Positions 10,950 through 58,355 are shown, numbered from the stretch's first letter. The stretch is 64,000 nt of DNA from Thermoleophilaceae bacterium (GCA_035650215.1 DASRIC010000002.1:18515-82514), one strand, 5' to 3'. The notes: generated by a model not told the origin, from the letters alone. Numbers and translations are program-made.

Positions 10950-10989
10950 CTGTCGGCGGGCGATTGTAGCGACGGGTGTCGCGTTTGCC

Positions 10990-11180
10990 CAAGTGTGGCG
11001 GTAGGATGCCGACCGTTCATACGGCCGGTGGCACAGGGAAGTTCGGTGTGAAGCCGACGCGGTCCCGCCACTGTGATCGGGCGCCGATGCGTCGCATGGA
11101 GCCACTGGGGAGCCGACGGTTCTCCGGGAAGGCGCGGCGCGGAGCCCAAAGCCAGGAGACCTGACTCCGGCCGCAGCCCG
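10990..11180 (+). promoter_or_regulatory. Cobalamin (B12) riboswitch
   Basis: Core ...GGTGGCACAGGGAAGTTCGGTGTGAAGCCGACGCGGTCCCGCCACTGTGA.... B12 box GCCACTGGG at 11101. 3' element AAGCCAGGAGACCTGAC. It lies directly upstream of the ATG at 11208. The ends are approximate. Confidence 0.75.
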
Positions 11181-11207
11181 TACGACCCTCGAGGAAGGGG
11201 TGGCCCC

Positions 11208-26227: not shown

Positions 26228-27062
26228 GACGATCGTCGTCCACAAGGGGCGCGGGTTGCCCTACTCGAAGGGGCTGATGGCGCAGTCGCTGTCGGCCACG
26301 GGGATCGGCCTCGAGCGGGCCTTCGAGCTCGCACGCCTGATCGAGGCCCGGCTCGCCAGCCGTGGCGACGACGAGATCGACACCGCGGCGCTCCAGGCGC
26401 TTGCCGAGGAAGTGCTGGTGGCCGAGGAGGGCGCGCCGGCGCTGCGCCGCTACCGCGGCTGGCGGCGGCTCGACCGGCTTGACCGCCCGCTCGTGGTCCT
26501 GATCGGCGGCACCACCGGCGTCGGCAAGTCGACGCTCGCCAGCATGCTCGCCGCCCGCCTCGGCGTGAACCGGGTGATCGCCACCGACGTGATCCGCCAG
26601 GTGCTGAGGGCGTTCTTCACCAGCGAGGCGATGCCGACCGTGCACCACTCCGCGTTCGAGGCCGGCGGCATCAGCGGCTACCGCGACCAGGCCGAGCGGG
26701 TGGGCACCGGCATCGCCGCCATCGTCGAGCGTGCCGCCAACGAGGCCAAGCCGGTGGTGGTGGAGGGCGTGCACGTGGTGCCCGGTGGCGTTCACCCGCG
26801 CGTCCGCGAGCGCTGCGTGCTCGTGGAGGCGCTCGTGGTGGTGGAGGACCCCGAGCTGCACATGGGCCACTTCTCCCACCGTCCGGGCACCCGCCCGGCG
26901 GAGCGCTACCTGGCGCGCTTCGAGGACATCCGGCGCCTGCAGGACCACCTCTGGGACCGGGCGCGCTCGGAGGGGGTGGTGGTCATCGACAACGACAGCG
27001 TCGACGGCACGCTCGCCCGGTTGATGGAGCTGGTGCTGGACGCCGTCGAGGAGGACCGCTAG
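26217..27062 (+). CDS. 2-phosphoglycerate kinase
   Basis: N-terminal ATP-cone-like segment (VVHKGRGLPYSKGLMAQSL...). Then P-loop IGGTTGVGKSTLA and ...VVEGVH.... Confidence 0.7.
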   Translation: MPAETIVVHKGRGLPYSKGLMAQSLSATGIGLERAFELARLIEARLASRGDDEIDTAALQALAEEVLVAEEGAPALRRYRGWRRLDRLDRPLVVLIGGTTGVGKSTLASMLAARLGVNRVIATDVIRQVLRAFFTSEAMPTVHHSAFEAGGISGYRDQAERVGTGIAAIVERAANEAKPVVVEGVHVVPGGVHPRVRERCVLVEALVVVEDPELHMGHFSHRPGTRPAERYLARFEDIRRLQDHLWDRARSEGVVVIDNDSVDGTLARLMELVLDAVEEDR

Positions 27063-27099
27063 TGGCGGCTGCAAGCACTAGTAGGGTTCGGCGCCGCCC

Positions 27100-28233
27100 A
27101 TGACCGTCCTGAAGAGAGAAGAGCTCGAGGGAAGTCCGCTTGCCGACCTCCACGCGATCGCGTCGGAGCTCGGCCTCGAGGGCTTTCGCACGAAGCGCAA
27201 GGCCGAGTTGATCGCCGCCATCCTCGACGCCACCGGCGACGACGCCGACGCCGAGGAAACGTCCGAGGACACCTCGGAGGACACGTCCGAGGAGACGTCG
27301 GAGGACACCTCCGAGGACACATCGGAAGACACGTCCGAGGGCACGTCCGAGGACACCTCGGAGGGCACCTCCGAGGACGAGGAGCCCGAGGAGCCGAAGC
27401 AGGAGCAGCCCGAGCGCGAGGAGGAGATCGCGAGCGGCGTGCTCGACATCCTCGCCAACGGCAGCGGCTTCGTGCGCGTGGACCCGGCCGGCCAGTCGCG
27501 CGACGACGTGTACGTCTCGCCCGCCCAGATCCGCCGCTGCGAGCTCCGCGCCGGCGACGAGGTGAGCGGGCCGGTGCGCCCGCCGCGCCGCAACGAGCGC
27601 CATCCGTCGCTCGTGCGCGTGGCGACCGTGAACGGGGGGGACGCCGAGCCGCCCGAGGAGCGCCCCTGGTTCGGGGAGCTCACCGCGGTCTTCCCGTCGG
27701 CCCGCCTGTCAGCCCCGGCCGCAATCGCCGAGGTGCCGTTCGGGCGCGGCTCACGGGTTGCGATCTCCGGACCGCCCGGAGCGGGCGCCACCACCCTGCT
27801 GCGCGAGCTGGCCGCCGAGCTGGGCCGCGATGCGGAGCTGGGCGCGCTCGTGGTGCTGGCGGGAGTGAGGCCCGAGGAGCTGGCCGACTGGCAGGCGATC
27901 GAGGGCGTGGCCGCGGTCGGCGGCAGCTTCGACCGCTCGGCCGACGCCCAGGCGCAGGCCGCCGAGCTGGCGATCGAGCGCGCCAAGCGCCGCGTCGAGC
28001 GCGGCGGTCACGCGGTGGTGCTCGTGGACTCCCTCGGCGCTCTCCCGGCCGGGGCCCGCCGCCGTGTGTTCGGCGCCGCGCGCGCCACCCAGGAGGGCGG
28101 GACGCTCACCGTGGTCGCGGCGACGGGCGATGCGCCGGAGGCGCTGCGCTGGGCAACCACCCGGATCGTGCTCGAGCCGGGTGGCCGGGTGGGCGCCGAG
28201 AGCGGAGCCCTGCGCGCCGACGCCCTTACTTGA
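27100..28233 (+). CDS. Rho-like protein with degenerate ATPase motifs
   Basis: Rho_N-like LADLHAIASELGLEGFRTKRKAELIAAIL. CSD-like RNA-binding block GVLDILANGSGFVRV...DVYVSPAQIRRCELRAGDEV. The P-loop reads GPPGAGAT instead of PPKAGKT, Walker-B-like is VVLVDSLG, and RRVFGAARATQEGGTLTVVAT is present. Confidence 0.75.
   Translation: MTVLKREELEGSPLADLHAIASELGLEGFRTKRKAELIAAILDATGDDADAEETSEDTSEDTSEETSEDTSEDTSEDTSEGTSEDTSEGTSEDEEPEEPKQEQPEREEEIASGVLDILANGSGFVRVDPAGQSRDDVYVSPAQIRRCELRAGDEVSGPVRPPRRNERHPSLVRVATVNGGDAEPPEERPWFGELTAVFPSARLSAPAAIAEVPFGRGSRVAISGPPGAGATTLLRELAAELGRDAELGALVVLAGVRPEELADWQAIEGVAAVGGSFDRSADAQAQAAELAIERAKRRVERGGHAVVLVDSLGALPAGARRRVFGAARATQEGGTLTVVAATGDAPEALRWATTRIVLEPGGRVGAESGALRADALT
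27259..27378 (+). repeat. 10 x 12-nt in-frame tandem repeat encoding (T-S-E-D/E/G)10
   Basis: acS-tcS-gaR-gRc units repeat ten times, giving TSEDTSEDTSEETSEDTSEDTSEDTSEGTSEDTSEGTSED inside the Rho-like gene. Confidence 0.9.
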
Positions 28234-30297: not shown

Positions 30298-30480
30298 GTG
30301 AGCGACGTTGAAGACTCGCCCCGAAGCTCGCCGCAGTTGGATCGCACGTCGGTCATCAGCCGCAAGGCCAAGGCCGTGATAGCCGGAGTGACCGCGCTGC
30401 TCACGCTCGCGACCGGCGTCCTGACGCTGAAGCTGGTGAGCTCACGAGCCCTCCCGGCGCCGGGATGCGGAGCGGCGTGA
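30298..30480 (+). CDS. Small single-TM protein (60 aa), first ORF of the large-protein operon
   Basis: GTG start. Hydrophilic N-terminus, then KAVIAGVTALLTLATGVLTLKLV (one TM). Its stop TGA (30478-80) overlaps a GTG (30477) of the next gene. Confidence 0.45.
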   Translation: MSDVEDSPRSSPQLDRTSVISRKAKAVIAGVTALLTLATGVLTLKLVSSRALPAPGCGAA

Positions 30481-33188
30481 ACCCGGTCGAGCTGCTGCGT
30501 CACCTCGCGGAACGTCTCTGGGCGCTGGCGCGGGACGCCGCCGACGAGCTCGCCGCGGGCGCCGCCAACTTCCTGCCCGAACCGAACGCGCCGGCGCCGC
30601 TGCAGGGGCGTCTGCTGACCGCCTTCGCGACGCTGCCCCAGACGAACGCGCTGGCCCGGCTCGCCCGAGACATCCTGGGCGAGCTGCCTGAGGGCGGCCC
30701 GATCCGCCTGCACGGCTGGCGGCGCAGCCCGGAGCCGCCGATCGGGGTCGCCCTGGTGCTCACGGAGGGCGACGACAGAGCGGTGCTGGCGATCACGCCC
30801 AGCGACCCGCCCAAGCTCGACGTGGTGGTCACCGCGGGCGCCGCGATCAGCGTCGAGAGCGGGACCGGGCCCTGGCGAGCCCGTGCGGCGGTCTCCTCCG
30901 ACGTCGTGTGGGACGCCGAGCTGTCGCCGAACACGCCGGCCCCCTCGCCGAGCGGGACCGCGACGATCGCCATCCAGCGCGTGGAGCCGTTCCGGATCGG
31001 ACCTCCGCAGGGCCCCGGCTTGTCGGCGCGCACCATCAGCTGCGAGCTGCGGGCGAGCCCCGGCTCGGCCACCTCGTTCCGGCTGAACGCGGAGGAGTTC
31101 AGCGCCGCGCTGCTTCCCGAGCCGATCGCCGCGCTCCTGGGGGCCGGACGGGACCGCGCGACGGCGCCGACGCGGCTCGGCCTGGCGGCCGACGCCCTGG
31201 GCGGGCTCCGTTTCGGTGAGTCGGGCGTCCGGGTGGAGCTGCCCGGGCGGCTGTCGCTTCCCGGCGTGTCCGCGCACGGGTTCGGCCTCGAGCTCGCCGG
31301 GCACGACGCCGGCCTGGCGCTCACGGCGGCGGTGTCCCTGAAGGCGCAGCTGCCGGGCGTCCCGGTGACGGCCCAGATCGAAGGGGTGGGCATCACGGTG
31401 CCGTTCTCGGTCACGAATGCGGCACTCGGCCCACCGAGCGCGATCGAGCCGCCGCTCCCCTCGGGCATCGGCCTCGAGCTCGGCCTGCCGCCGGTCTCGG
31501 GCGGCGGCGACGTGCGCAGGACCGCCACGGGCTACGCGGGCGTCTTCGACGTCGACCTGGGCGTCTTCCGGGTCCAGGCGCTCGGGGTGTTGGAGCCGCC
31601 GGCGGGCGGCCGGCCCACCTCGCTGCTGGCGCTGCTGGCCGCGATGTTCCCCTATCCGGGCATCCAGCTTGGCTTCGGCTTCGCCATCGACGCGGTGGGC
31701 GGGCTCGTGGGCATCAACCGCCGCGTCGACGTCGAGCGGCTGCGCGCGCTCGTTGGCGACGGCCAGGCTGACCGGATCCTGTTCCCGGACAACGCGGTGG
31801 CCCGCGCTCGAGAGATCACGGACTCACTCGACGCGGTGTTCCCCTCGGCCCGCGGTCGCTTCGTGGTCGGCCCGACGGTCCGCATCAACTGGGGAGGGCG
31901 CATGGTCACCCTCGCCGGAGCCGTGGTGCTCGACCTCCCCGGCCCGCGCCAGGTGGTGTTGCTGGGGCGGCTGCTCGTGGCCGTGCCCGACCCGGCCGCG
32001 CCGCTGATCCGGCTGCAGGCGAGCGTGCTCGGCCGGATCGACCCGACGGTCCCGGAGACGGAGCTCCTGGCCTCGCTCGCCGGCTCGCGAATCGTGGCCG
32101 TGCCGGTCGACGGAGAGATCTACCTGCTCGTCCGCGGCGGTCCGCAGGCGGTGTTCGTGCTCTCGGCCGGCGGCTTCCACCCGCGCTACACACGCCCGCC
32201 CGGCGTGCCTGCCCTACGACGGGTGACAATGGACCTGGGCGGCGGCTTCCTGGGCCTGCGCGCCGAGGCGTACCTGGCGGTGACCTCGAACGCCATGATG
32301 TTCGGCGCCAAGCTCCAGCTCGACGCCACGATCGCCGGCTGCGGCGTCGAGGGACATCTCGGACTCGACGCGCTGTTCGTGTGGGAGCCGACCTTCTCGT
32401 TCTCGGTCCACGTCTACGCGAGCGTCGCCGTGCGGGCGTTCGGCAGGCGGCTGGCGAGCGTGGGGCTGGACTTCACCCTCGAGGGACCGGCGCCATGGCA
32501 TGCCTTCGGCACGGGCAGCATCTCGGTGCTGTTCTGGGACGTCTCGCTCGACTTCGACGTGCGCTGGGGCGACGCGCCGGTCGCGCGCCTGGAGGAGCGC
32601 GACATCTTCCCGCTGCTCGAGCGCGCCCTCGCAAATCCCGAGGCCTGGACCGCGGAGCGGCCGCTCGAGCAGCGCAACGGAGTGCGGCTGACCGACGCGG
32701 CGCGGGCCGATCTCACGAACGGCCGCGCGGTGCAGGCGGACGTGACGCTGCGGATCTCCCAGAACGTGGTCCCGCTGGGCGAGCCCATCACGCGCTTCGC
32801 CAGGACGCACATCCCGCGGCAGCAGTGGGACATGCTGGGCGACGGCGCCGCGATCACGGACCGCTTCATCCCGGGCGAGTTCTTCGACCTGACCGAGGAC
32901 GAGCAGCTCACGCTGCCGGCGTTCGCGGAGGTCCAGAGCGGCATCACGATCTCGGAGAGGGACGTGGTCTCGGGGCCGGCGCACGTGGTCGACGACAGCT
33001 ACGAGACCGGGTACAAGGTGGAGCCGGGCTTCCAGCCGGCCGATCCCGGCATCAGCTTCAACCTGACGATCGGGCGCTTCTCACTCGAGCTGTTCGCGCA
33101 CGTCGCGACGCCGTCGGAGCGGCTCGACCGCTGGCGCCTCGCCCAGAAGACGCTGCCGGGCGCCGGGGGACCGGTGCTGATGCGATGA
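30465..33188 (+). CDS. Large hypothetical protein A (907 aa; the start could be GTG 30477)
   Basis: Long ORF with normal residue composition and no signal peptide or TM. The central and C-terminal part is beta-strand-rich: ...GIQLGFGFAIDAVGGLVGINRRVD...GGFHPRYTRPPGVP...LDALFVWEPTFSFSVHVYASVAVRAFG...ISVLFWDVSLDFDVRWGD. Confidence 0.8.
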   Translation: MRSGVNPVELLRHLAERLWALARDAADELAAGAANFLPEPNAPAPLQGRLLTAFATLPQTNALARLARDILGELPEGGPIRLHGWRRSPEPPIGVALVLTEGDDRAVLAITPSDPPKLDVVVTAGAAISVESGTGPWRARAAVSSDVVWDAELSPNTPAPSPSGTATIAIQRVEPFRIGPPQGPGLSARTISCELRASPGSATSFRLNAEEFSAALLPEPIAALLGAGRDRATAPTRLGLAADALGGLRFGESGVRVELPGRLSLPGVSAHGFGLELAGHDAGLALTAAVSLKAQLPGVPVTAQIEGVGITVPFSVTNAALGPPSAIEPPLPSGIGLELGLPPVSGGGDVRRTATGYAGVFDVDLGVFRVQALGVLEPPAGGRPTSLLALLAAMFPYPGIQLGFGFAIDAVGGLVGINRRVDVERLRALVGDGQADRILFPDNAVARAREITDSLDAVFPSARGRFVVGPTVRINWGGRMVTLAGAVVLDLPGPRQVVLLGRLLVAVPDPAAPLIRLQASVLGRIDPTVPETELLASLAGSRIVAVPVDGEIYLLVRGGPQAVFVLSAGGFHPRYTRPPGVPALRRVTMDLGGGFLGLRAEAYLAVTSNAMMFGAKLQLDATIAGCGVEGHLGLDALFVWEPTFSFSVHVYASVAVRAFGRRLASVGLDFTLEGPAPWHAFGTGSISVLFWDVSLDFDVRWGDAPVARLEERDIFPLLERALANPEAWTAERPLEQRNGVRLTDAARADLTNGRAVQADVTLRISQNVVPLGEPITRFARTHIPRQQWDMLGDGAAITDRFIPGEFFDLTEDEQLTLPAFAEVQSGITISERDVVSGPAHVVDDSYETGYKVEPGFQPADPGISFNLTIGRFSLELFAHVATPSERLDRWRLAQKTLPGAGGPVLMR

Positions 33189-36019
33189 GCCGCCGCTGGT
33201 TCGTCTCCTCGGTCGGAATCGGCGCCGCGAACGAGGCGACCCTGCTCGAGGGTGCGCGCCCGCTGATCAAGCCCGGTGTGCGGGTGCGACGGACCATCGG
33301 CGACGAGCGGACCGGCCGCGACATCAAAGGACCGCCCCTCCAGCTGCTCGGCCCCGGCGACGCGCTCGGGTTCGATCGCGCGCTGGTGGTGCGCGAGGAG
33401 CCGCAGGCGGGCACGCTGAACGGCGTCGAGAGCAACCTCGCGTGCGTGGAGTTCAGCGACGCCGCGCTGCCGTGGCTGTTCTCGCGTCCCGGGCCGGACG
33501 GGAAGCGGCCTCCGTGGATCGTGCTGCTGGTGCTCCGCGACGACGAGGCCGAGCTGGCCGGCGGCGAGCCGCTTCCGGTGGTGCGGGCGCCGGGGACCGC
33601 GCTGCCGAGGCTGGCCGACTCGTGGGCCTGGGCCCATGTGGAGGCGCGCGTGCCGGACAGCGCGCCGAACCCCGAGGCGGACGTCGTCGCCGACGTGCGC
33701 AGCGGCCTGCAGACGGTGATCTCTCGGCTTGTCTGCCCACGGCGACTTAGCGAGAACAGCGGCTGGATCGCCTGCGTGGTGCCGGCCACGAAGGCCGGAG
33801 TGGCGGCGGGATTGGGGAGGAAGGTCGACACGGGGGACCCGTTCGGCCCGCCGTGGACCGCCGGGCAGGCGGAGCCCGTGCGGCTGCCCGTGTACCACGC
33901 ATGGCGCTTCCGCACCGGGGCGGCGGGATCGTTCGAGGAGCTTGCCCGCCTTGTCGAGCCGGTCAAGGCCGCCGAGCTCCCCGACTTCGGCGCGCGCACG
34001 GTCGACGTACGGCATCCGTGGCCACACGCCGACCTGCTCGAGGGGGCACCCTCGCCCGTCACGGTGTCCGTCCAGGGGGCGCTGCGCGTGCCGGCGATCC
34101 AGGTACCCGAGGAGAGCTGGAGCCACGCCGCGACCCAGCAGCGGTTCGTGGAGCTCGCGCGTGAACGCCTCGACGCTCCCGCCAAGCGCTTCGGCACCGT
34201 CAGCGCCGAGCCCGACCGCGACGACGAGGCGGTGGCGCCGCCCCTCTACGGCTCCCACTTCACCGGCTTGCAGAGGGTGCCCCAGAGCGGCTGGCCGGCG
34301 GCGCTCAACCTCCAGGTGCGCCACCGCATCGCGGCGGCCATCGGCACGCGCTACGTGCAGCTCGAGCAGGAGTTCCTGATGGCGCGGGCCTGGGAGCAGC
34401 TCGGGGCGATCAACGAGGCCAACCGCCTGCTGGCGGTCGGCGAGCTGTCGAGCGAGGCCGCCGGCCGGGCACAGGCCAAGCACGTCGAGCCGATGGACCC
34501 GACGCAGGTCACGCTGATGGCGCACCCGATCCAGGACCAGGTCGAGATCGAGGGCGTAGGCACCATGGCGCGCGCGCTGGCGGACTCGAAGGTGCCCGAG
34601 GGCGCGGCCTCCGCGCCGTTCCGGCGCCTCGCCCGCCCGGGCGGCGGGCTGGCCCGGCGTGTGGAGAGGATCCGCTCGGAGATGGTGAGCTCGATGGGCG
34701 CCGGGATGCCCGAGACCGTGCCCGTGGTCGCCGAGGGCCTCGCCGGTCGCCAGATCCTGCCCGAGGCGGTGGCGTGGGTCACCGCTCACCCCGACGAGAC
34801 CGAGGGGCTGATCGGCGTCGACCGCGCGTCGCTGCCGTCCTCGACCTCGCTGGTCGGGCTGCTCGAGGGCCAGCAGCCGCTGTTCAGGCAGCGGAGCGAG
34901 GCCGCGCTCGCCGAGATGTCGTCGCTCACCGAGGCGGCCACGAGCTCCATGGGCGCGACGGCGGTCACCGCCCCCGCGCCGTCGCCGCGGCTGCTGCGCA
35001 GCCTTCGCCGGCAGGTGAACGCGGAGGCCCTCGTGGAACTGCCGAGCGTCGCGGCGTCCGTGCAGCTCGAAGTCTCGACGCTCGCGGGCTCCGTGGTGAG
35101 CGACCTGCGGCCGCTCTCCCAGCAGCTCACGCGGATGACCGAGCTGATCGCCGCGCCGGATGTCGACGGCCGTGAGGAGTCGGACGAGCGGCCGCTGCGC
35201 CCGATCATGGAGCACCCGCGCTTCGGGATGCCGATCGCCGCCGAGCTCCTGACACGCTGGCCGGAGTGGGCGGTGCCCGGGATCTCCGGCTTCCCACCCA
35301 ACAGCGCGACGCTGCTCGAGACGAACTCGCCGTTCGTCGAGGCCGTGATGGTCGGGCTGAACCAGGAGTTCAACCGCGAGCTCCTGTGGCGCGAGTTCCC
35401 GACAGACCAGCGCGGTTCCGCGTTCACCCGCTTCTGGCCGTCCGAGCGGGACGATCCCGACGTCGACGAGATCGCGCGCTGGCGGCTCGACACCGCCCTG
35501 GGCGACCACGACGAGACCGGCGGCCAGGACCTGGTCGTGCTGCTCGTGCGCGCGGACGTGTTGCGGCGCTTCCCCGGGACGACGGTGCTGGCGGCCAAGT
35601 CCGTGAATGGCGTGGTGCCGGACGAGGGCAGCGGCGAGTGGAAGGTGCCGACGTTCGCGCTGGGGGTCGACGAGCAGACGGCGCTGTTCGCCTTCGACCT
35701 CACAGCTGCGGCCGCGCGCGCCGGCAAGTGGCTGTTCGTGCTGCGCGAGCCGATGCGCGGCACCCAGTTCGGGTTCGACACCCGCACGAACGTGCCGTTC
35801 AAGTCCTGGGCGGACCTGCGCTGGGACGACGTTCCCGTGGCGCGCGGGTTCGTGGTGCCGCGCGTGTTGAACGGGCAGCCCCCGACGCCGCCCGAGCGGC
35901 CCGCGGTCGATCCGCCGGAGTGGGGGCGCGACGCCGCCGACGTGGCGCGAATCGCATTTCAGCGCCCGTTCCAGCTCGCCATCTCGGCGCGGCGCCTGCT
36001 CGGGGAGCCGCCGCCATGA
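33185..36019 (+). CDS. Large hypothetical protein B (944 aa)
   Basis: ATGA overlap with A. Motif islands are ...ALPWLFSRPGPDGKRPPWIVLLVLRDDE..., ...LPVYHAWRFRTG... and ...LLETNSPFVEAVMVGLNQEFNRELLWREFPTDQRGSAFTRFWP.... No recognisable catalytic motif. Confidence 0.8.
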   Translation: MSRRWFVSSVGIGAANEATLLEGARPLIKPGVRVRRTIGDERTGRDIKGPPLQLLGPGDALGFDRALVVREEPQAGTLNGVESNLACVEFSDAALPWLFSRPGPDGKRPPWIVLLVLRDDEAELAGGEPLPVVRAPGTALPRLADSWAWAHVEARVPDSAPNPEADVVADVRSGLQTVISRLVCPRRLSENSGWIACVVPATKAGVAAGLGRKVDTGDPFGPPWTAGQAEPVRLPVYHAWRFRTGAAGSFEELARLVEPVKAAELPDFGARTVDVRHPWPHADLLEGAPSPVTVSVQGALRVPAIQVPEESWSHAATQQRFVELARERLDAPAKRFGTVSAEPDRDDEAVAPPLYGSHFTGLQRVPQSGWPAALNLQVRHRIAAAIGTRYVQLEQEFLMARAWEQLGAINEANRLLAVGELSSEAAGRAQAKHVEPMDPTQVTLMAHPIQDQVEIEGVGTMARALADSKVPEGAASAPFRRLARPGGGLARRVERIRSEMVSSMGAGMPETVPVVAEGLAGRQILPEAVAWVTAHPDETEGLIGVDRASLPSSTSLVGLLEGQQPLFRQRSEAALAEMSSLTEAATSSMGATAVTAPAPSPRLLRSLRRQVNAEALVELPSVAASVQLEVSTLAGSVVSDLRPLSQQLTRMTELIAAPDVDGREESDERPLRPIMEHPRFGMPIAAELLTRWPEWAVPGISGFPPNSATLLETNSPFVEAVMVGLNQEFNRELLWREFPTDQRGSAFTRFWPSERDDPDVDEIARWRLDTALGDHDETGGQDLVVLLVRADVLRRFPGTTVLAAKSVNGVVPDEGSGEWKVPTFALGVDEQTALFAFDLTAAAARAGKWLFVLREPMRGTQFGFDTRTNVPFKSWADLRWDDVPVARGFVVPRVLNGQPPTPPERPAVDPPEWGRDAADVARIAFQRPFQLAISARRLLGEPPP

Positions 36020-39000
36020 GCGACGTCTTCGCCCAGCGCGGGGTCGTGGACGCGCTGCGGCTCGAGCACGAGACCGCGCTCGCCTCGGCCGACGACCAGG
36101 AGGTGGCCCTGCCCCTGCTCGAGCTGAGCATCAATAACGGCACCTTCGAGGGCCACCACCCCTTCACGAACCAGGAGTGGCTCGAGATCAACCGGGAGAA
36201 CCAGCGCCAGCGGCGCGAGGCGGTGGCCGAGAAGAAGGCCAGGCTCGAGGACGCCGAGCGGGCCCTCGAGGCGACGCTCGGCGAGGGCAAGCCGCTGTTC
36301 CGCCAGCGCAACGCCGAGCCGATCGCGCTGCTGCCCGTCCGCCTCGAGACGCGCTTCGCCGACGCCTCCACGATCCAGGTGCGGGTCTATCCCGACGACC
36401 TGCACATCGACTCCTTCGACCCGCGTCTCACCCGCGCCGAGCTCGAGGCCGGTCGCCGCTACTGGCGCAAGCCGAGCGAAGCGGCCTGGCAGCGGCTGCT
36501 GGGCCGGCTCAGTCCGGCGCGGGCGGCGTGGGTCACGCGCGCTACGCGCCGGGGAGCCCCCGCGCCGCGGCTGCGCAGGCCGGGTCAGCGGCGCTCGCCG
36601 GCGATCTCCACGCTCCCCACGAGGTGGCGCTTCCTCGGCCTGGTCGGCGGCAGCATCGTCGTGGACAAGCGCGGGGAGCCGATCCCGTCCCCGCTGCCGC
36701 TCGGCGTGCTGGAGGTCGACGAGGCCGACCGCAAGCATGCCGCCTGGGTTGTGCACTTCAAGGCCGCCGAACGCGCGGGGATGGCCACCACGCTGACGCT
36801 GCCGGACGGCGTGGCCCACCTCGATGAGCTGTTCGTGATCGGCGTCCAGCGCAGCACGCCGGCGGCCGCGTCCAAGGCGCTGCGTGACACCCTGATGGGA
36901 CACGCGTTCGGCGCCGGGCTCGGCTTCCTCGCGCCGGGCACCCCGACGAACAACACGCCCCAGAGCCGCTCCGGATGGTCGTCGCGGCCGCTGCCGCGAC
37001 CGCCGGGCCCGAGGCGGCCGAAGCTCGAGCGGGGGACCGACGCCGCCAGGCTGGCCGGCGCACTCGGGCTCCCCGATGCCGCCTTCCTGGCCGAGTGCCC
37101 GGGCGCAGGCGGCAAGGCCGAGCAGGCGCTCGCCGGCCTGACGATGCTGACCTGGGGCGCGCTTGGGCACGGCATGATGGACGCGTCGATCGAGAACGAC
37201 CTGGTGAGCGGGCAGGGCGGGCTCGCCGACGCGGAGAAGTGGCGGCCGGTGCGCGACCACCTGATCGACTACGTGCGCAGCCGCGGGCCGCTGCCGACGA
37301 TCAGGGTGGGCAACCAGCCCTACGGGGTGCTGCCTGCCACCACGCTCGACGAGTGGGAAGCCAAGCTCATCATGGGCCCGACCACGGTCTTCGTCCCATG
37401 GCTGCTGCGCCTGCGCCACCACTGGCGCGCAGCGCTGGCGCCAGGCTGGATTCCGCGCGTGACCGACGGCGAGCCGGCGGATCGCACCGCGGTCGCCGTG
37501 CTCTCGCGGCTGCCGGTGCCGGTCGACCTGGCGGTCAGGCGCATGCTCCTGCCGAACGGCACGCGCGACAAGCTGAGGTCGAGGGCGTCGGGCCCCGCGC
37601 TGTCGATCGGCGGCGTGGGCCCGGGGTCGAACCTGCGCTGGTCGATGGCCACCGAGCTGACCAGCAACCTGTCGTTCACGGGGAACGAGACCCCGCCGGA
37701 CTACGCGCTCGGGATGCAGCGGCTCGACCCCGAGCCGGGGGGTCTCACCGAGGTGCTGACCGCCAGCCGCGAGCTCTGGACCGACGCGCTGGCGGTGGTG
37801 CGCGGCAAGCTCGAGCTGCGCGAGTACAGGCGCCGCCGGCGCCGCCGGCCGGACACGCTGGCCTCGATAAGCGGCAACCGCGAGTTCCCCGGGCTGGTGG
37901 CGGCGATGCTCCACCCCGACAATTGGTTCGCCTGGAATGTCGACGACGGCGCCGACGACCCACTGCGTGAGGCACTCAGCCTGCCCGGCGCGGTCGACGA
38001 CCTGGCGTCCCTGCTCCTTGGCCCCGCGCCCAGCGGCGACGACGAGCTGATCGCGCAAGCGCGAACGACCGCGCGCAAGTGCGCCAGGAGGGCGCCCGAG
38101 GTGATCGAGGCGATCGCCGCTCTGGAGGCCACGCCGCCCGATCGTCTGCTCCCGCTCGCGTTCGAGGTGCTGGACGTGTACTCCCACCGCCTCGACGCCT
38201 GGATCACCTCGCTCGCCACGCGGCGCCTGCTCGCGATGCGCGACACCGGCGAGTCGACCGCCAGCCGGATCGGCGGCTACGGCTGGGTGGAGAACCTCCG
38301 CCCGAAGGAGAACCTGCCCCAGATCGACGGCTACATCCACGCGCCGTCCCTCCACCACGCGGCCACGGCGGCCGTGCTGCGCTCCGGCTTCCGCTCCCAC
38401 GACGGCGACGAGACCCTTGCGGTGAACCTCACCTCGCGCCGAGCCCGGATCGCGCGCTGGCTGCTCGGCGGCGTGCGGCGCGGCCAGGAGCTGGGCTCGC
38501 TGCTCGGGTACCGCTTCGAGCGCGCGCTGCACGAGGCCGGGCAGGACGAGCTGATCGACGACTTCCGCCGGGCCTATCCCGCCCAGGTCGCCCCCGAGCC
38601 GGAGGCCGGGGCCGACCCGGAGGAGTGGCGGCGAAGCAGCGTGGCGATCGCCGCACGCAACATCGTGGACGGGATCGCGCTGGCGCGGGACCACGTGCGG
38701 GCTGCGAGCGTCTTCCCCGCAGCCGCTCCCCAGATCGCCGACGCGGTGGATGCCCTCGATGCCGTGAGCGACCTGCTGCTCGCCGAGAGCGTGCACCAGC
38801 TGGTGGGCGGGAACGCGATGCGGGCCGGGCTGTCCGCCGACAACCTCGGCCGCGGTGAGCAAGTGCCCGACCGCTTCGACGTGCTGCGCACGCCACACCG
38901 CGGCCGTGCCGTCACCCACCGAATCGCCGCGATCCTGCCGCGGGCCGCGTCGGCGGGGGAGGGTTGGAGCCCGGACGCGCTGTCGGCCCTCGACCCGCGC

Positions 39001-40194
39001 GTCGACGCGTGGGTGGCCGACGCGCTCGGTCCCGCGCAGTCCCGCCGTGTGACCGGGACGCTGACTCGCGAAGGCGGCGTCGGGGAGCCCTTCGCCTTCG
39101 GCGCGGACCAGCTCGGCTTCGGCGCGCTCACCACGGCGCTGGAGGTCTCGGGGGCCGACCACGCCCGGCTCGACGCCCGCGTGCTCGAGCTCGCGGGGGC
39201 GGCGGGCGCGACCCTCCGCTACGAGGGCCAGGGCTGGCAGGAGCTGCGCGGCGTGGCCACGCGCGTCGCCTCGCTACTCGCCTCCGCCCAGCCGCTGCTG
39301 CCCGGACACGTCGCCGCGGGCGACGCGGCCGAGAAGGTCGAGGCGGACCTGGCCGAGCTCCAGGCGCGGCTCGCGGAGTTCGCCGCGACCCTGGCCGGCC
39401 GCAGCGACCCCGCGACTCCCGCCGGCCGGCTGCGCAAGCTCGCCAGGCAGGCCCCCGACGGCGGCTGGCTGGCCACCGTCTCCACGGCGCTCGCGGACGT
39501 GCTCGGCGCGCCGGTCCCGGTCACGCCGCTTCTGAGGGGCGGCGAGCTGGGCCCGGCGCCGGAGGGAGCCACCGGCGCGGAGCTCGCGGACTGGGCGCGC
39601 CGCCTGGGAGCGGTCCGCCCGGCCGTAAGGACCTGGCACGAGCTGCTGCTGCTGACCGGAGCCGGATCCGGCGCGCCGTGCCCCCTCAGCGCGTCGCAGT
39701 CCCCGCGCGGGGATGCGTCGGAGCGCTGGATCGGCGGGCCGTTCAAGGCGACGGCGCGGCCGGCGGCGCGCCAGCAGGTCGTGTTCCACCAGCCGGCGAA
39801 GCTCACCGCCGGCCGGCCGCTGGCGGGGATCGTCTTCGACGAGTGGGTCGAGCTGCTGCCGGGCTCCGACGCGCTCGCGCAGACCAAGCTCGAGGGCCCC
39901 GATCCGCTTCCCGCCGAGTCCGAGCTGACCGGCGTGTCGTTCCACTTCGACCGGCCCGACGCCAAAGCCCCTCAGGCGATCCTGCTGGCGGTGCCGCCGA
40001 CCCGCGCCCGCGGCTGGACCGAGGACGTGCTCGCGCTCGTGGTTCGCGATACGCTCGAGCTGGCGAAGCTGCGCGCGGTGGACGTCGGCGCGCTGCCGCT
40101 CGTCGACGACGTGGCTCCGGGGATCCGCCTGAACAAGCTTTCGCCGCTCGGCAGCCTGGCGTTCGACTTCTGGGTGGAGCTGGCGGACGAGTAG
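36016..40194 (+). CDS. Large hypothetical protein C (1392 aa)
   Basis: ATGA overlap with B. The N-terminus has a charged helical segment NQEWLEINRENQRQRREAVAEKKARLEDAERALE. Later islands are LLPVRLETRFAD, VRVYPDDLHIDSFDPRLT, IRVGNQPYGVLPATTLDEW, GYIHAPSLHHAATAAVLRSGF and LGSLLGYRFERALHE. Confidence 0.8.
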   Translation: MSDVFAQRGVVDALRLEHETALASADDQEVALPLLELSINNGTFEGHHPFTNQEWLEINRENQRQRREAVAEKKARLEDAERALEATLGEGKPLFRQRNAEPIALLPVRLETRFADASTIQVRVYPDDLHIDSFDPRLTRAELEAGRRYWRKPSEAAWQRLLGRLSPARAAWVTRATRRGAPAPRLRRPGQRRSPAISTLPTRWRFLGLVGGSIVVDKRGEPIPSPLPLGVLEVDEADRKHAAWVVHFKAAERAGMATTLTLPDGVAHLDELFVIGVQRSTPAAASKALRDTLMGHAFGAGLGFLAPGTPTNNTPQSRSGWSSRPLPRPPGPRRPKLERGTDAARLAGALGLPDAAFLAECPGAGGKAEQALAGLTMLTWGALGHGMMDASIENDLVSGQGGLADAEKWRPVRDHLIDYVRSRGPLPTIRVGNQPYGVLPATTLDEWEAKLIMGPTTVFVPWLLRLRHHWRAALAPGWIPRVTDGEPADRTAVAVLSRLPVPVDLAVRRMLLPNGTRDKLRSRASGPALSIGGVGPGSNLRWSMATELTSNLSFTGNETPPDYALGMQRLDPEPGGLTEVLTASRELWTDALAVVRGKLELREYRRRRRRRPDTLASISGNREFPGLVAAMLHPDNWFAWNVDDGADDPLREALSLPGAVDDLASLLLGPAPSGDDELIAQARTTARKCARRAPEVIEAIAALEATPPDRLLPLAFEVLDVYSHRLDAWITSLATRRLLAMRDTGESTASRIGGYGWVENLRPKENLPQIDGYIHAPSLHHAATAAVLRSGFRSHDGDETLAVNLTSRRARIARWLLGGVRRGQELGSLLGYRFERALHEAGQDELIDDFRRAYPAQVAPEPEAGADPEEWRRSSVAIAARNIVDGIALARDHVRAASVFPAAAPQIADAVDALDAVSDLLLAESVHQLVGGNAMRAGLSADNLGRGEQVPDRFDVLRTPHRGRAVTHRIAAILPRAASAGEGWSPDALSALDPRVDAWVADALGPAQSRRVTGTLTREGGVGEPFAFGADQLGFGALTTALEVSGADHARLDARVLELAGAAGATLRYEGQGWQELRGVATRVASLLASAQPLLPGHVAAGDAAEKVEADLAELQARLAEFAATLAGRSDPATPAGRLRKLARQAPDGGWLATVSTALADVLGAPVPVTPLLRGGELGPAPEGATGAELADWARRLGAVRPAVRTWHELLLLTGAGSGAPCPLSASQSPRGDASERWIGGPFKATARPAARQQVVFHQPAKLTAGRPLAGIVFDEWVELLPGSDALAQTKLEGPDPLPAESELTGVSFHFDRPDAKAPQAILLAVPPTRARGWTEDVLALVVRDTLELAKLRAVDVGALPLVDDVAPGIRLNKLSPLGSLAFDFWVELADE

Positions 40195-41796
40195 ATGCGC
40201 GACATGGTCGACATCCTCGGTCAGCCCCGCTTCCGGGACGACTTCTTCCGGCTTGAGCCGCTCCATCGCAGCCCGGAGGTCGCCGCGGGCCTCACAGCAC
40301 GTGTCCACGATCCCGCCTGGGCGCTGACGCGCCAATGGCAGCTGGGCGAGTTCGCCGGGCAGGACGCGGGCTCGCCGGTGCTCGTGGAGCTCGCAGGACA
40401 CAGCACCCTGATCACCCACTGGCGGGCCTCGCTGGACGACTCGCAGCCGTGGATCTCCTATCACCCGCGCGAGGGCCCCCTCGACCGGCTGATCGAGGCC
40501 GAGGAGGTCCGGGACGCCGACGAGCGCACCAGCGTCGAGGGCGGCGCCCACTTCGTCCGGCTGCTCGACGAGGCGGGCCAGAGCGCCAAGCTGCCGGCGG
40601 TGCTCGAGGCGTTCGGCTTCGACCCGCTCGAGGGCGACGCCGACACCGACATCGTCGCGCTGCTGGCCGCGAGGGTCCCCGACGCCCGCAAGCTCGCCGG
40701 AGCGATTGACGCGGGGCCGCTGCCCGTGGCCGGCATCGCCGAGGTGGCAAAGCGCTGGCGCTCGTGGTGGGCGGGGCTGTTCCCGGACCCGGGTCCCGAC
40801 ACGTTCGACGAGCACCGCTTCGAGCACCACGCCGGCTTCTCGGTCGCGGGTCAGGTGCTGCGCGCCGACGAGTACCTGGGCGACGGCCTCGACTGGTTCA
40901 CGGTGGACGTCGACCCGGCCGCAGCCGCCCAACCCGCGGCCGAGCCGTTTCGCTTCGCCCGCGAGGCGCTCGCCTCACCCGTGCGCTTCGGCGGCCTGCC
41001 GGCGGACCGCTTCTGGGAGATGGAGGATGCGCAGATCGACCTCGGCTCCGCCGACGTGAGCACGCTCGACACCGGCCGGCTCCTGCTGATCGCGTTCGCC
41101 GAGGTGTACGGCAACGACTGGTTCCTGCTGCCGCTGGAGGTCCCCGCCGGATCGCTGACGGTGCTCGAGCAGGTGCGGGTCACGGACACGTTCGGCCAGG
41201 AGCACGTGATCGAGCGCGCCGGCCGCGACAACCCGGCCTGGAACATGTTCACGCTGCACGGCAGCGACGACGGGCTGCTCGTGATGCCGTCGGAGCGGGG
41301 CGTGACGGGCGGGGTGCTGGAGAGCATCGCGCTCGCGCGCGACGAGCTGGCCAACCTGGCCTGGGCGATCGAGGTCGAGTACAGCGACGAGCGGGGGCGG
41401 AGGGTCGACCGCCGCGACCGCTGGCTCGAGATCGCGCCCGAGCCCGAGCCTCCGGGGGAGCTCCCCAGGTACGCCGTGCAGACGATCGTCCCCGACTACT
41501 GGCTGCCGCTCGTACCGCACATGGTGAGCGCGGGCTCGATCCGCTTCGCGCTGGTGGAGCTGGAGCAGCCCGGGATCGGGTCCGGGCCGCGCGGGCGCCT
41601 GCTGGTGCCCGGCACCTGGCTGCACGAGGAGGAGGTCCCGCGCGAGGGGGCCTCGGTCACGCGGCGCCCGGTGCTGGCGCGCTGGTTCGACGGCTCGTCG
41701 CACGCCTGGACGCGGCGCGAGAAGAACCCGGGCGGGGGCGAGAGCTCGAGCGGCCTCGCGTTCGACATCGTCCGGCCGTCGGAGCCTTGGCCGTAG
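40195..41796 (+). CDS. Large hypothetical protein D (533 aa)
   Basis: The ATG directly abuts the TAG of C. Islands are HDPAWALTRQWQLGEFAGQDAGSPV, PADRFWEMEDAQIDLG and LLLIAFAEVYGNDWFLLPLEVPAGSL. Confidence 0.8.
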   Translation: MRDMVDILGQPRFRDDFFRLEPLHRSPEVAAGLTARVHDPAWALTRQWQLGEFAGQDAGSPVLVELAGHSTLITHWRASLDDSQPWISYHPREGPLDRLIEAEEVRDADERTSVEGGAHFVRLLDEAGQSAKLPAVLEAFGFDPLEGDADTDIVALLAARVPDARKLAGAIDAGPLPVAGIAEVAKRWRSWWAGLFPDPGPDTFDEHRFEHHAGFSVAGQVLRADEYLGDGLDWFTVDVDPAAAAQPAAEPFRFAREALASPVRFGGLPADRFWEMEDAQIDLGSADVSTLDTGRLLLIAFAEVYGNDWFLLPLEVPAGSLTVLEQVRVTDTFGQEHVIERAGRDNPAWNMFTLHGSDDGLLVMPSERGVTGGVLESIALARDELANLAWAIEVEYSDERGRRVDRRDRWLEIAPEPEPPGELPRYAVQTIVPDYWLPLVPHMVSAGSIRFALVELEQPGIGSGPRGRLLVPGTWLHEEEVPREGASVTRRPVLARWFDGSSHAWTRREKNPGGGESSSGLAFDIVRPSEPWP

Positions 41797-41798
41797 CG

Positions 41799-42770
41799 AT
41801 GAAGAAGGCACTGGCGATCGCGCTCGGGGTGAGCGCTCTGAGCGCCGTCGCGGCGGCCCCCGGGCAGGAGCCTCGCGAGGCGGTCTCGGGGCGGCCGCAC
41901 ACGATCGTCGGGATGGGCGAGCAGCAGCCAGACCTGTTCGAGGACCCGCGCCTCCGCGCGTCCGGGATCCGTCACGTGCGCCTGCTGGTGCCGTGGGACG
42001 TCGTAAAGATGGGCGGCTGGCCGCTACAGGCGACCGACCTGTGGCTGGAGCGGGCCCGGCGAGACGGAATGGAGCCACTCGTCTCGTTCGGCCACTCGTG
42101 GTCGGAGAAGCGCCAGCTGAAGCTGCCGTCGGTGCGCCAGTACGCGGCGCAGGTCAGGGCCTTCCGCGAGCGCTACCCGTGGGTGCGCGAGTACTCGACC
42201 TGGAACGAGGCGAACCTCGCGGGCAAGCAGCCCACGGGCAAGCATCCGCGTCGCACGGCGGTCTTCTACCGGGCGCTCCGGAAGCAATGCCGGGGCTGCA
42301 CGATCGTGGCGGTGGAGCTACTCGTTACCGCCAACTGGCGAATGTGGCGCTGGATTCGCGCCTTCCGCGAGCGCGCGGGCCGCGGCCGGCTGATCTTCGG
42401 GCTCCACAACTATCCCGACGTGACGCGCCTAAGGGGCGTTCGCACGCGCCGCTTCCTCCGGCTGGTCCGGAACGCCGAGATATGGATCACCGAGACCGGC
42501 GGCATCGTGCGCCACAGGGGCTTCGACTACGACGAGGGCCGCGCCGCCCGGGTGGTCCGCCACATCTTCAGGCTGGTCGCCGCCCTCCCGCGGGTGAAGC
42601 GCCTGTACTTCTACAACTGGCGCTACGACGGCAACGTTCGCTGGGATTCCGGCCTGATCTCGCGCGACGGGACCGAGCGGAAGGCGTATTTCGAGCTGCT
42701 CGACGGACTGAGGCTCGACCGCTTCCGGCCGGTTCCGCGGGTCGACCCACTCGGCCCGCTGTTTCCTTGA
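41799..42770 (+). CDS. Secreted clan-GH-A-like (TIM-barrel) glycoside hydrolase
   Basis: The ATG lies 2 nt after the stop of D. Signal peptide MKKALAIALGVSALSAVAAA. STWNEANL is an acid/base-type NEA motif and IWITETGG is a nucleophile-type TE motif. Confidence 0.65.
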   Translation: MKKALAIALGVSALSAVAAAPGQEPREAVSGRPHTIVGMGEQQPDLFEDPRLRASGIRHVRLLVPWDVVKMGGWPLQATDLWLERARRDGMEPLVSFGHSWSEKRQLKLPSVRQYAAQVRAFRERYPWVREYSTWNEANLAGKQPTGKHPRRTAVFYRALRKQCRGCTIVAVELLVTANWRMWRWIRAFRERAGRGRLIFGLHNYPDVTRLRGVRTRRFLRLVRNAEIWITETGGIVRHRGFDYDEGRAARVVRHIFRLVAALPRVKRLYFYNWRYDGNVRWDSGLISRDGTERKAYFELLDGLRLDRFRPVPRVDPLGPLFP

Positions 42771-42805: not shown

Positions 42806-44206
42806 CTACTCGATCCCCTCCTGTTTCCCGCCGGGCATGAAGAACCGGCAGATGATCCAGCCGGCCGCGAGTATTCCCGCGCCGACGTACCAGGCGGTTT
42901 TCATCGCGTCCACGAAATCGTTCACGCCCGCCGCTCCGGTCAGGTCGGTCGCGCTGGCGATGATCGTTCCCATGATCGCCATGCCAACCGCGGACCCGTA
43001 GTTCCGGAAGGTCTGGATGATTCCCGAGCCCTGGCCCCTCACGGCATCGGGGAGTCGGTTGAGCGCGTCAGTGTTCAGGGGCGAGAAGATCAGGCCGAAC
43101 CCGGCGCCGGTCACCAGCATTCCGGCCAGGGTCGAGGAGCGGCTCAGTCCGTCGAGCTCGGACGCCCACAGGATCATCCCGACCGTCGCCAAGGCGAAGC
43201 CCAGCCCGACCGGCCGCTTGGCGCCGAACTTGTCCATCCAGCCGCCGCCGATCCGGGCGGAGACGAAGAACGAGTAGAACATCGTCAATATCGAGAAGCC
43301 GGCCTCCGTCGGCTCCTGGCGAACTGCGACCTGGAAGTAAAAGCTGCCGAAGAAGAAGACGGCGAGCCAGGGAGCAAAGGCCAGCAACGTCAGGATGTTG
43401 TCCACCGCGAAGGGGCGATTCCTGGCCATCTCCCGGACGTCGATCAAGGGGTTCTCGGTGTTGCGCTCGGCGAGGACGAAGACCACGAGAAGCGCGACGC
43501 CGATCACGATTGCGCCGATCGTCCGGACGTCGCCCCAGCCCCAGACCGTCGATTGCTGGATCCCGAGCACCGACAGGGCCATTCCGGCGACGATCAGGAT
43601 CGCTCCGCGAACGTCGACCTTGGCCGGATTCTTCCTGTCCCTGAGCTTCGCGAAGTAGAGCTCGGCGAGGGCAAGAATCGCCACGGGCACGTTGATCCAG
43701 AAGATCGCGCGCCAGGTCCAGTATTGGGTCAGGTACGCCCCCGCGACGGGCCCGACCGCGGTGAACAGCCCGGTGACGATGAAGAAGACCGCCAGGCCCT
43801 TGCCGCGCTCCTTCGGCGGGAAGGCATCGAGCACGAGCACCGTGGCAGAAGGGATAAGGAGACCTCCCGCTGCGCCCTGGATGGCCCGGAAGACGATCAG
43901 CCAGGTCTCGGCGATCCCGGTGTCCGGAACGAGCCCGCACATCAGCGAGCTGACCGCGAACAGGATCACGCCGATGACCACGATCTGGCGGTGGCCGAAG
44001 ATGTCGCCGAGGCGGCCACCGAGAGCGACGAAAGCCGCCGTGGCGAGCGCGTAGGCCGTTATCAGCCACTGCGCCCCCGTCTCGGTGAGGCCGACGTCAT
44101 CCTGGATCGTCGTGGCGGAGATGCTGACGATGGTGAAGTCGATGAACACCATCGCCATCGCCGGGACAAGGGGCCACAGCACCCGGTAGCGCGGATAGTC
44201 CTCCAT
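42806..44206 (-). CDS. MFS transporter, DHA2 family
   Basis: ...ALGGRLGDIFGHRQIV... (motif A-like), about 14 TM segments, and an overall EmrB/QacA-like layout. Confidence 0.9.
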   Translation of the reverse strand: MEDYPRYRVLWPLVPAMAMVFIDFTIVSISATTIQDDVGLTETGAQWLITAYALATAAFVALGGRLGDIFGHRQIVVIGVILFAVSSLMCGLVPDTGIAETWLIVFRAIQGAAGGLLIPSATVLVLDAFPPKERGKGLAVFFIVTGLFTAVGPVAGAYLTQYWTWRAIFWINVPVAILALAELYFAKLRDRKNPAKVDVRGAILIVAGMALSVLGIQQSTVWGWGDVRTIGAIVIGVALLVVFVLAERNTENPLIDVREMARNRPFAVDNILTLLAFAPWLAVFFFGSFYFQVAVRQEPTEAGFSILTMFYSFFVSARIGGGWMDKFGAKRPVGLGFALATVGMILWASELDGLSRSSTLAGMLVTGAGFGLIFSPLNTDALNRLPDAVRGQGSGIIQTFRNYGSAVGMAIMGTIIASATDLTGAAGVNDFVDAMKTAWYVGAGILAAGWIICRFFMPGGKQEGIE

Positions 44207-44550: not shown

Positions 44551-44966
44551 CGCGCGCGTAGTTCTTCGCTACCGACGGTCGGGTCGCTGCTTGGCGAGCG
44601 CGCGCTGGGCGTCCTTTGCGCGATGTTCTTCGACCAGTGTCCGCAGGCGCTGGGTCACGCCCGGCGCTCGCCGATCCATCGCCCAGACGTCGCGCTTGAA
44701 CAACGCGATCACCCGCATCGGCGAGGTGGCAACGACCGAGGCTGTGCGCAAGCCGCCTTCCGCCACCTCAGGCCGAGGGGTCAGCCAAGGCCAGCGGTCG
44801 TGTCCTGTCTTGCACGGCTTCCGGACGGACGGTGCCCCGAGCGTTGAGCTGTCTCGTCTGGTGTTTGAACCCGGGCAGGCAGGGCTGCGTAGTACCGGGG
44901 GAGTCAGTTCATCCGCGGCTGCCGCCTGCAAGAGCCTTGCTGCAGATCCCCGATAGAAAGGCACAG

Positions 44967-58179: not shown

Positions 58180-58340
58180 ACGCGCCTCATCTTCGAATTG
58201 CCGAGTTCTCGCCGTCCCACGGCGGGAAACGGGGGACCCAATTGGCGGCCGCAGCGGCCGCCCGGGGCGAATCGCGGAATCCGTCCGCGTAGCGCCACTT
58301 TCCGGCGCGAGCCCGACAGCTCACCTCGTAGGCACTGGGA
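58180..58340 (+). promoter_or_regulatory. ydaO/yuaA-type (cyclic-di-AMP) riboswitch
   Basis: Conserved blocks are ACGGGGGACCCA, CCGGGGCGAATCGCGGAATCCG and GCCCGACAGCTCACCTCGTAGGC, directly upstream of the Rpf-like gene. The ends are approximate. Confidence 0.65.
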
Positions 58341-58355
58341 AAGGGGAACCGAAAG

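Follow-up and report, generated by a model that had tools for sequence, protein, structure and literature searches.

The locus described here raises the question of what four very large, tightly coupled proteins do, and whether they belong to any system already known. It lies in a 64,000-nt stretch of DNA from a Thermoleophilaceae metagenome-assembled genome (MAG), which was analysed at its full length and is referred to below as the window. Six plus-strand genes stand back to back at 30298–42770. The middle four, A, B, C and D, are the subject of this report; a 60-aa open reading frame (ORF) precedes them and a 323-aa protein, E, follows. Judged from gene order and neighbourhood, A-B-C-D is a self-contained, horizontally mobile four-gene cassette, and it appears to be an undescribed system that can be assigned to no known class. 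As to function, we give a probability of roughly 0.4 to a reading by analogy, in which A–D would form a released, target-binding, enzyme-carrying particle, comparable but unrelated to Tc toxins, extracellular contractile injection systems (eCIS) and umbrella toxins.

Loci carrying the cassette were located by tblastn, family hidden Markov models (HMMs) and precomputed gene calls. The same order of the four genes recurs in haloarchaea and in no fewer than three bacterial phyla, extending the conservation of the A-B-C-D neighbourhood across phyla and two domains of life. Carriers include Conexibacter and Solirubrobacterales MAGs, Nocardia, Streptomyces, Micromonospora, Mesorhizobium, Methylococcus and one further 4.5-Mb genome. 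The order is likewise kept on plasmids of Streptomyces, Rhizobium lusitanum, Gemmatirosa kalamazoonensis and Paraburkholderia caribensis, on haloarchaeal plasmids of Halobellus and Natrinema, and in 48 metagenome loci or contigs.

The flanks differ in each genome and comprise, among others, luciferase-like oxygenases, PemK, ATP-grasp proteins, an S8 peptidase, integrases accompanied by HigB, and tyrosine recombinases. Because the surroundings change everywhere, and because the cassette resides on plasmids and adjoins integrases or toxin-antitoxin genes, it is best regarded as horizontally mobile; in the present window it has landed beside E. An earlier note, made from the window's sequence alone, had taken the genes for a resident module rather than an island, a view that the variable flanks, the plasmids and the integrase and toxin-antitoxin neighbours found elsewhere contradict. 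Its remark that composition agrees with the flanks is borne out locally: GC content in the window is 67–77% and the cassette matches its host. No att-like flanking repeats and no adjoining tRNA gene or integrase were found in this window, in agreement with the absence of such a boundary claimed earlier. The window does, however, contain tRNA genes, namely tRNA-Leu(CAG) at 2748–2830 (+) and tRNA-Glu(CTC) at 10877–10949 (−); at ~20 kb or more, these stand too far off to mark the ends of the cassette.

Duplication of the whole cassette was observed as well. Two complete PhoD-like-A-B-C-D modules, 58–74% identical protein by protein, stand in tandem (locus L051, 3919–19082 and 19318 onward; locus L053), L051 and L053 being situated on the same 224-kb contig, Ga0193753_10000020. 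A further locus (L058) carries the tail of one module followed by a gene for a phospholipase D (PLD)-like protein, A and B. A phage origin was considered and rejected: the cassette has no PHROG match, a search of 50,697 phage genomes found nothing, and IMG/VR yielded a single short fragment.

Two additional sequences are recorded separately. On the Paenibacillus polymyxa plasmid p-YT9A (locus L070, 13005–23121), a divergent gene of the DUF6603 family, to which A belongs (see below), is followed by hypothetical genes of 714, 1050 and 504 aa that the HMMs of B, C and D do not detect. The annotation about 8 kb 5′ of them lists two genes for phage baseplate assembly protein V, together with DUF4280, a GH-E nuclease and an ankyrin-repeat protein. 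Possibly the locus represents a highly divergent form of the cassette in Bacillota. The other sequence, P0243 (ENA, 1364 aa), is 100% identical to 75% of C and is fused to PD40/Tricorn-like domains resembling those of the window's PD40/DUF11 gene at 44832–46688; it lies on a contig of 4.4 kb and is probably a chimera created by assembly or gene calling.

Coupling, fusion and the limits of the unit

The four cassette genes follow one another on the plus strand practically without spacers: A, the DUF6603 subunit and first gene of the conserved cassette (30465 or GTG 30477 to 33188; 907 or 903 aa), B (33185–36019; 944 aa), C (36016–40194; 1392 aa) and D (40195–41796; 533 aa). As read from the sequence, A and B have a common ATGA at 33185–33188 and B and C another at 36016–36019. 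The TAG of C (40192–94) is directly succeeded by the ATG of D (40195–97), and the TAG of D (41794–96) is separated by a 2-nt gap from the ATG of E at 41799. At the 5′ end, the TGA of the 60-aa ORF (30478–80) overlaps the GTG of A (30477–79). All of these junctions and overlaps are exactly as first described. The start of A admits two positions, the ORF listing giving ATG 30465 (907 aa) and the NCBI annotation of the identical MAG protein giving 903 aa, which corresponds to GTG 30477. A GGAG lies 4 nt 5′ of this GTG, and the N-termini of homologues (MDPxELL...) align with VNPVELL of A; the GTG start proposed in the earlier note fits both the 903-aa protein and these homologues.

The reality of the six ORFs follows from three observations. 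Third-position GC is 0.88–0.95 in the ORFs of A, C and D, to which the figure refers, the longest ORF in the frame of B beginning inside A. An independent gene caller applied to the source contig returned the same six genes (60, 907, 944, 1392, 533 and 323 aa). Finally, homologues number in the hundreds to thousands: a word-indexed search yielded 743 for B, 412 for C and 893 for D, and an exhaustive HMMER search with the D profile retrieved 5,343 representatives of 50%-identity clusters at E ≤ 1e-3 (2,133 at E ≤ 1e-30). The same evidence upholds the original view that A–D are real, translationally coupled genes. C is 100% identical to VFB44_00355 of a Thermoleophilaceae bacterium MAG, and A, D and E are deposited in NCBI as HZN87399.1, HZN87402.1 and HZN87403.1, respectively.

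Neighbouring subunits are also repeatedly joined or divided in other lineages. C and D are fused into one protein of ~2,000 aa in a large Streptomyces and Mesorhizobium clade, 55 of the fetched proteins, and one A+B fusion and one B+C fusion were recovered among the fetched proteins. Fission is seen in Rhizobium and Halobellus, where B and C are each divided over two or three genes (two for B). In Streptomyces-type B, the profile matches in two blocks with profile positions ~520–620 between them unmatched. Since gene order is fixed, translation is coupled, and neighbours have been fused and split repeatedly, the four proteins would constitute one obligate assembly; these comparisons indicate a hetero-oligomer of ~3,800 residues per protomer set. 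The idea of a fixed multi-subunit structure, first suggested by the coupling in this one locus, is strongly backed by the gene order kept in two domains, by the C+D, A+B and B+C fusions and by the fissions of B and C.

The two outer genes are only local neighbours of the cassette. The 60-aa ORF (30298–30480, +), the first of the local operon, starts with the GTG at 30298, 8 nt downstream of a GGGAG, and encodes one predicted transmembrane helix (residues ~24–46) with a hydrophobic window at residues 24–30. It has no Pfam or NCBIfam match, and neither a homologue nor an analogous transmembrane ORF was found 5′ of A in ~65 related loci; it is lineage-specific and outside the conserved cassette. 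Protein E (41799–42770, +; 323 aa), a co-oriented neighbour with a signal peptide, does not stand next to the cassette in any of these loci, including relatives whose B is 56–71% identical. A homologue at least 90% identical to E (L071, 8001–8957) adjoins a major facilitator superfamily (MFS) transporter gene, with no A–D nearby. Because E is missing from the related loci and a near-identical E stands without A–D, a glycan hydrolase is no required part of the system. Both the six-gene unit and the need for such a hydrolase, as put forward in the earlier note, are at odds with these distributions. The GH-A-like (glycoside hydrolase clan A) label given to E depends on two motifs made out by eye, NEAN (~136) and ITETG (~230). 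Enzymes of this clan combine a catalytic NE(P) acid/base with a nucleophile Glu ~100 residues further on, on a (beta/alpha)8 barrel; E matches no hydrolase family and has no Pfam, NCBIfam or PDB sequence match. E may on its own represent a family of secreted hydrolases not yet described.

Within this window, E is probably co-transcribed with the cassette. The genes 5′ of the operon are divergent, and the MFS transporter gene at 42806–44206, 3′ of E, is convergent. A terminator-like GC-rich hairpin at 42737–42759 (+), found by consensus scan at the end of E, likely marks where the local transcript ends. The scan gave no more such sites in the region than chance would (2 found against 2.8 expected in shuffled sequence). 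This arrangement allows an alternative in which all six genes act together and the transmembrane peptide and E serve as a holin/lysin-like pair releasing A–D, as phage-like lysis cassettes release Tc toxins. The tight junctions speak for it, with the stop of the peptide overlapping the start of A and E beginning 2 nt after D, as do the single terminator-like site, placed after E, and the combination of a signal peptide with GH-A-like NE...TE motifs, seen by eye, in E. Nevertheless, neither gene accompanies the cassette in the other loci, even among the relatives closest in B cited above, E occurs alone elsewhere and belongs to no hydrolase family, and the peptide bears no testable holin signature; we consider such a release pair very improbable.

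Families and folds of proteins A–D

Only A can be placed in a named family. It matches Pfam DUF6603 (PF20248) over residues 282–812 with 320.2 bits (cut-off 27; E = 2.9e-95), and NCBI annotates the 903-aa protein as DUF6603 domain-containing. A is a clear member of this family, which is without assigned function, and this is the sole family membership established for the cassette. By contrast with A, the proteins B, C, D and E gave no Pfam match even at E ≤ 10 and none in NCBIfam or PHROGs. B, C and D are large families lacking a Pfam or NCBIfam model, a structural relative or literature, D exceeding 5,000 clusters at 50% identity. No paper on DUF6603 (PF20248) was found in the subscription-free literature, and the constant partnership of DUF6603 with the B, C and D families is apparently previously undescribed. 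The first impression that no family could be named for any of the four holds for B, C and D; for A it gives way to a Pfam assignment, albeit only to a domain of unknown function.

Comparisons with structures and with known defence systems were equally unproductive. PDB sequences include no relative of A–E as single proteins, and profiles of A, B, C and D likewise found none, that of C retrieving coiled-coil noise only and the others at most coiled-coil or compositional noise. PADLOC-DB v2.0, which covers defence systems described up to 2023, returned no match at E ≤ 0.01 for nine proteins (A–E and four neighbours). AlphaFold2 models built on alignments of 50–53 sequences are of fair confidence and reached a predicted local distance difference test (pLDDT) score of 77 and a predicted template-modelling (pTM) score of 0.72 for D, and 80 and 0.63 for B. 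Against a significance threshold of E ≤ 0.001, the best Foldseek values were E = 0.14 for D against PDB and, for B, 0.048 against PDB and 0.052 against BFVD. Profile and Foldseek comparisons together yielded DUF6603 for A and no structural match for the models of B and D.

Some architectural features can nonetheless be described. A has a high glycine content; by eye it looks rich in beta structure, with hydrophobic stretches. B comprises an N-terminal beta domain, a variable helical middle (~490–670) and a C-terminal alpha/beta domain; the N-terminus of C is coiled-coil-like, and D is mainly beta with a helical insert. Segments 12–57 and 265–307 of D are invariant, yet fall below pLDDT 50 in the model, as expected if they were interface segments that become ordered only in the complex.

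A motif scan of A–D revealed no Walker A, HExxH, signal peptide or clear transmembrane helix, and the 3,776 aa contain no NTPase, helicase or nuclease motif. The corresponding claim of the earlier note is confirmed for Walker A, HExxH and signal peptides. Of DEAD-like strings, only one isolated tetrapeptide DEAD, in C, was found, and one hydrophobic 19-residue window at residue 497 of A lies barely above the Kyte-Doolittle cut-off. No paralogy among A–D was detected by BLASTP, nor any between A and C by hhalign. A possible kinship of C and D through a ~60-residue helical motif (C 830–897, D 116–174) was weak (hhalign E = 1e-3, probability 20%) and was not relied on.

Surface modules, enzymes and possible function

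Functional indications come mainly from what other lineages have added to the core. The C protein of Nocardia carries five N-terminal LysM domains and another C homologue an IPT/TIG domain, both by Pfam. D is the most decorated subunit across lineages: some members have three C-terminal Big Ig-like domains, some two inserted PA14 domains (PDB 6qe7, E = 5e-74), some an inserted WD40 propeller and some collagen-like G-X-Y runs. Further extensions, judged by eye only, look like IPT/TIG repeats and discoidin-like or lamin-tail-like domains. Modules of these types bind surfaces, glycans or peptidoglycan, and their exchange on one subunit follows the pattern of receptor-binding proteins.

A second variable element is the accessory gene 5′ of A, spaced −4 to +6 nt from it in most loci (range −181 to +194). 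Gene calls are crude in low- and mid-GC metagenome loci, and the following counts are lower bounds. The accessory protein is a WD40 propeller of ~355 aa in 8 loci, preceded in 2 by a hemopexin-repeat protein, and a PhoD-like protein of ~850 aa, represented by 7 ORFs, in 5 loci (two copies in L051, two ORFs in L048). A PLD-like protein accompanies the cassette in 3 loci, 5′ of A in L012 and L058 and 3′ of D in L032. A 908-aa protein combining GDSL-lipase, trypsin-like and Exo_endo_phos (EEP) domains occurs on one contig recovered three times (L059–L061), and in one locus the accessory position is taken by two paralogues without Pfam match. By eye, the accessory proteins have no Sec or TAT signal peptide at their N-termini, and neither visual comparison nor BLAST clustering revealed a common N-terminal adaptor domain in the accessory enzymes. 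Around the Streptomyces plasmid copy, PLD-like, DUF2235 and peptidoglycan-binding genes are annotated nearby; elsewhere the neighbours include PemK, an integrase with HigB and a PriCT_2/AAA_25 protein, a RES toxin with a trypsin-NACHT protein, and recombinases. The neighbourhoods of the cassette, and that of the divergent Paenibacillus DUF6603 locus with its baseplate and nuclease annotations, are of conflict type.

These additions are compatible with the released particle favoured above, which can be sketched as follows. The assembly would act as a particle outside its producer, reached by lysis or another route, and would bind the surface of other cells; release without signal peptides would liken it to Tc toxins and eCIS, which also lack them. 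A and B would make up the body, and D, and to some extent C, the exposed target-binding surface, re-tooled by lineage with PA14, Ig-like, IPT/TIG or LysM modules, collagen-like stalks, and WD40 or hemopexin propellers. The enzymes coupled before A (PLD-type, PhoD-like, and GDSL-lipase with trypsin-like and EEP domains) would provide a lipid- or phosphoester-cleaving payload for the target. The window's copy would then be a bare core, devoid of a lectin module or an obvious payload gene. The lack of an NTPase and of any match to known defence systems in the core counts for this reading. Among the proposals of the earlier note, the toxin- or effector-type machine is the one that, we infer, the comparative data support best.

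Several observations weigh against it. A–D have no signal peptides, the loci have no conserved lysis or secretion gene, and the putative payload genes are not followed by a small gene of immunity type. The present copy has neither lectin module nor payload gene, and decorated subunits are a minority, ~21 of 261 D-only proteins having at least 150 extra residues. Haloarchaea would offer LysM nothing to bind, although archaeal copies are not known to carry it. Fold comparison covers B and D, leaving a fold-level link of A or C to a known machine possible. Lastly, the PLD, protease and lipase partners, WD40, PemK, HigB, RES, trypsin-NACHT and the integrases would also suit defence by abortive infection.

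That last point leads to the principal alternative, intracellular immunity against phages or plasmids, in which A–D would be a cytoplasmic sensor or scaffold that activates an enzyme (PLD, PhoD-like phosphodiesterase or lipase/protease/EEP) on infection and thereby triggers abortive infection, WD40 proteins acting as sensing modules. A patchy spread prone to horizontal transfer, plasmids and archaea included, agrees with it, as do the neighbours of defence-island type (PemK, integrase, HigB, PriCT_2/AAA_25, RES toxin, trypsin-NACHT and recombinases), an enzyme partner without signal peptide that varies round a conserved core, and the paralogous modules in tandem on one contig at 58–74% identity. 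On the other hand, the core has no match in PADLOC-DB v2 and no NTPase, helicase or nuclease motif in its 3,776 aa; C and D carry LysM, PA14, Big, IPT/TIG and collagen-like modules, which one would not expect of a sensor in the cytoplasm; and many copies, that of the window included, are without an effector gene. We judge immunity unlikely, yet well short of negligible. The comparison with CBASS (cyclic-oligonucleotide-based anti-phage signalling systems), Avs and Lamassu-type defence gives the same mixed picture: a conserved core, variable PLD, protease or lipase effectors, mobility, and proximity to toxin-antitoxin genes and integrases are held in common, whereas the cassette lacks both a PADLOC match and a nucleotide-binding or nuclease core domain and bears glycan- or peptidoglycan-binding modules on its core subunits.

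The same wall-directed modules could instead serve the producer itself. A surface or envelope scaffold, developmental or adhesive, would use its lectin and LysM parts to anchor to the cell's own wall and its enzymes to remodel the envelope. In its favour, LysM and PG_binding_1 or peptidase M23 genes are found repeatedly within the cassette or close to it, the operon of this window also encodes a secreted protein and a small transmembrane peptide, and composition matches the host. Such a role appears improbable: one and the same core occurs in Gram-positive, Gram-negative and archaeal envelopes, there is no membrane or export component, the cassette is dispensable, mobile and unlinked to envelope biogenesis genes, and its conservation does not extend to E and the peptide.

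The proposed particle was further set against known antagonistic machines. Tc (ABC) toxins (TcA/TcB/TcC; Photorhabdus, Yersinia) resemble the cassette in their very large adjacent subunits without NTPase or signal peptides, in lineage-variable receptor-binding Ig-like decorations, in an enzyme payload, which in the cassette is putative, and in mobile loci. Unlike them, the cassette is free of RHS/YD repeats, TcA_TcB_BD, VRP1 and other Tc Pfam domains (E ≤ 10). With regard to the TcA fold, an alpha-helical shell with a pore-forming channel, Foldseek comparison of B with YenTcA and TcdA1 returned noise (E 0.2–1.3, TM < 0.08), and D gave no Tc match. The putative payload is moreover a separate gene rather than the C-terminus of an RHS cocoon, and the cassette extends to archaea.

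With eCIS, tailocins and type VI secretion systems the cassette shares an occurrence in Bacteria and Archaea that includes Streptomyces, fibre modules of LysM, collagen-like and Ig-like type, variable adjoining effectors (PLD- and lipase-type) and structural proteins without signal peptides. It differs in that the operon and its flanks have no genes for a sheath, tube, baseplate (gp25, gp6, VgrG, PAAR), tape-measure or AAA+ protein, no PHROG or phage-genome match was obtained, and Foldseek comparison of B with viral structures was negative. Umb particles of Streptomyces have Sec or TAT signals, ALF repeats, trypsin-like adaptor domains and C-terminal polymorphic toxin domains, UmbA being a trypsin-like-lectin protein (PMC11062931). 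Like the cassette, these umbrella toxins are multi-protein actinobacterial particles that derive specificity from diversified exposed lectin domains (PMC11062931), but A–D are without signal peptides, ALF repeats and trypsin-like or toxin domains by Pfam.

Taken further, it is possible, though we would sooner doubt it than assert it, that A–D are the core of an unrecognised class of nanomachine of Bacteria and Archaea. Such a class would be NTPase-free and self-assembling, unrelated in sequence and fold to the Tc, contractile and umbrella systems. It would bind targets through interchangeable lectin, Ig and propeller modules of C and D, and would carry or deploy phospholipase, phosphoesterase or protease payloads encoded by separate genes. 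It is rare for a conserved assembly of this size, ~3,800 residues, to be so widespread and yet unstudied. If the toxin or adhesion particle is real, it would give microbes a novel means of antagonising one another, whose targeting surface might be programmable and which might bring an enzyme cargo with it; this would be of interest for the ecology of Streptomyces and Nocardia and for the engineering of protein delivery; a defence system would be unusually large and NTPase-free. In either case, concrete families and a testable gene set are available in culturable Streptomyces, Nocardia, Micromonospora, Mesorhizobium, Methylococcus and Natrinema.

Other features of the window

Just 5′ of the cassette's divergent neighbours, an unusual gene trio occupies 25046–28233 (+). 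Its first gene encodes a CpgS_N-domain protein, the second a protein with an ATP-cone and a zeta-toxin/AAA-like kinase domain, and the third a 377-aa Rho-like protein with Rho_N and Rho RNA-binding domains and only a partial ATPase match. Two riboswitches were also identified. A c-di-AMP (ydaO-type) riboswitch (RF00379, 75.6 bits) at 58189–58348 (+) lies just 5′ of a 200-aa ORF at 58356–58958. A cobalamin riboswitch (RF00174, 76.8 bits) at 10989–11182 (+) stands directly 5′ of a very GC-rich (75–77%) run of plus-strand genes at ~11073–18638, which is presumably a B12-regulated operon.

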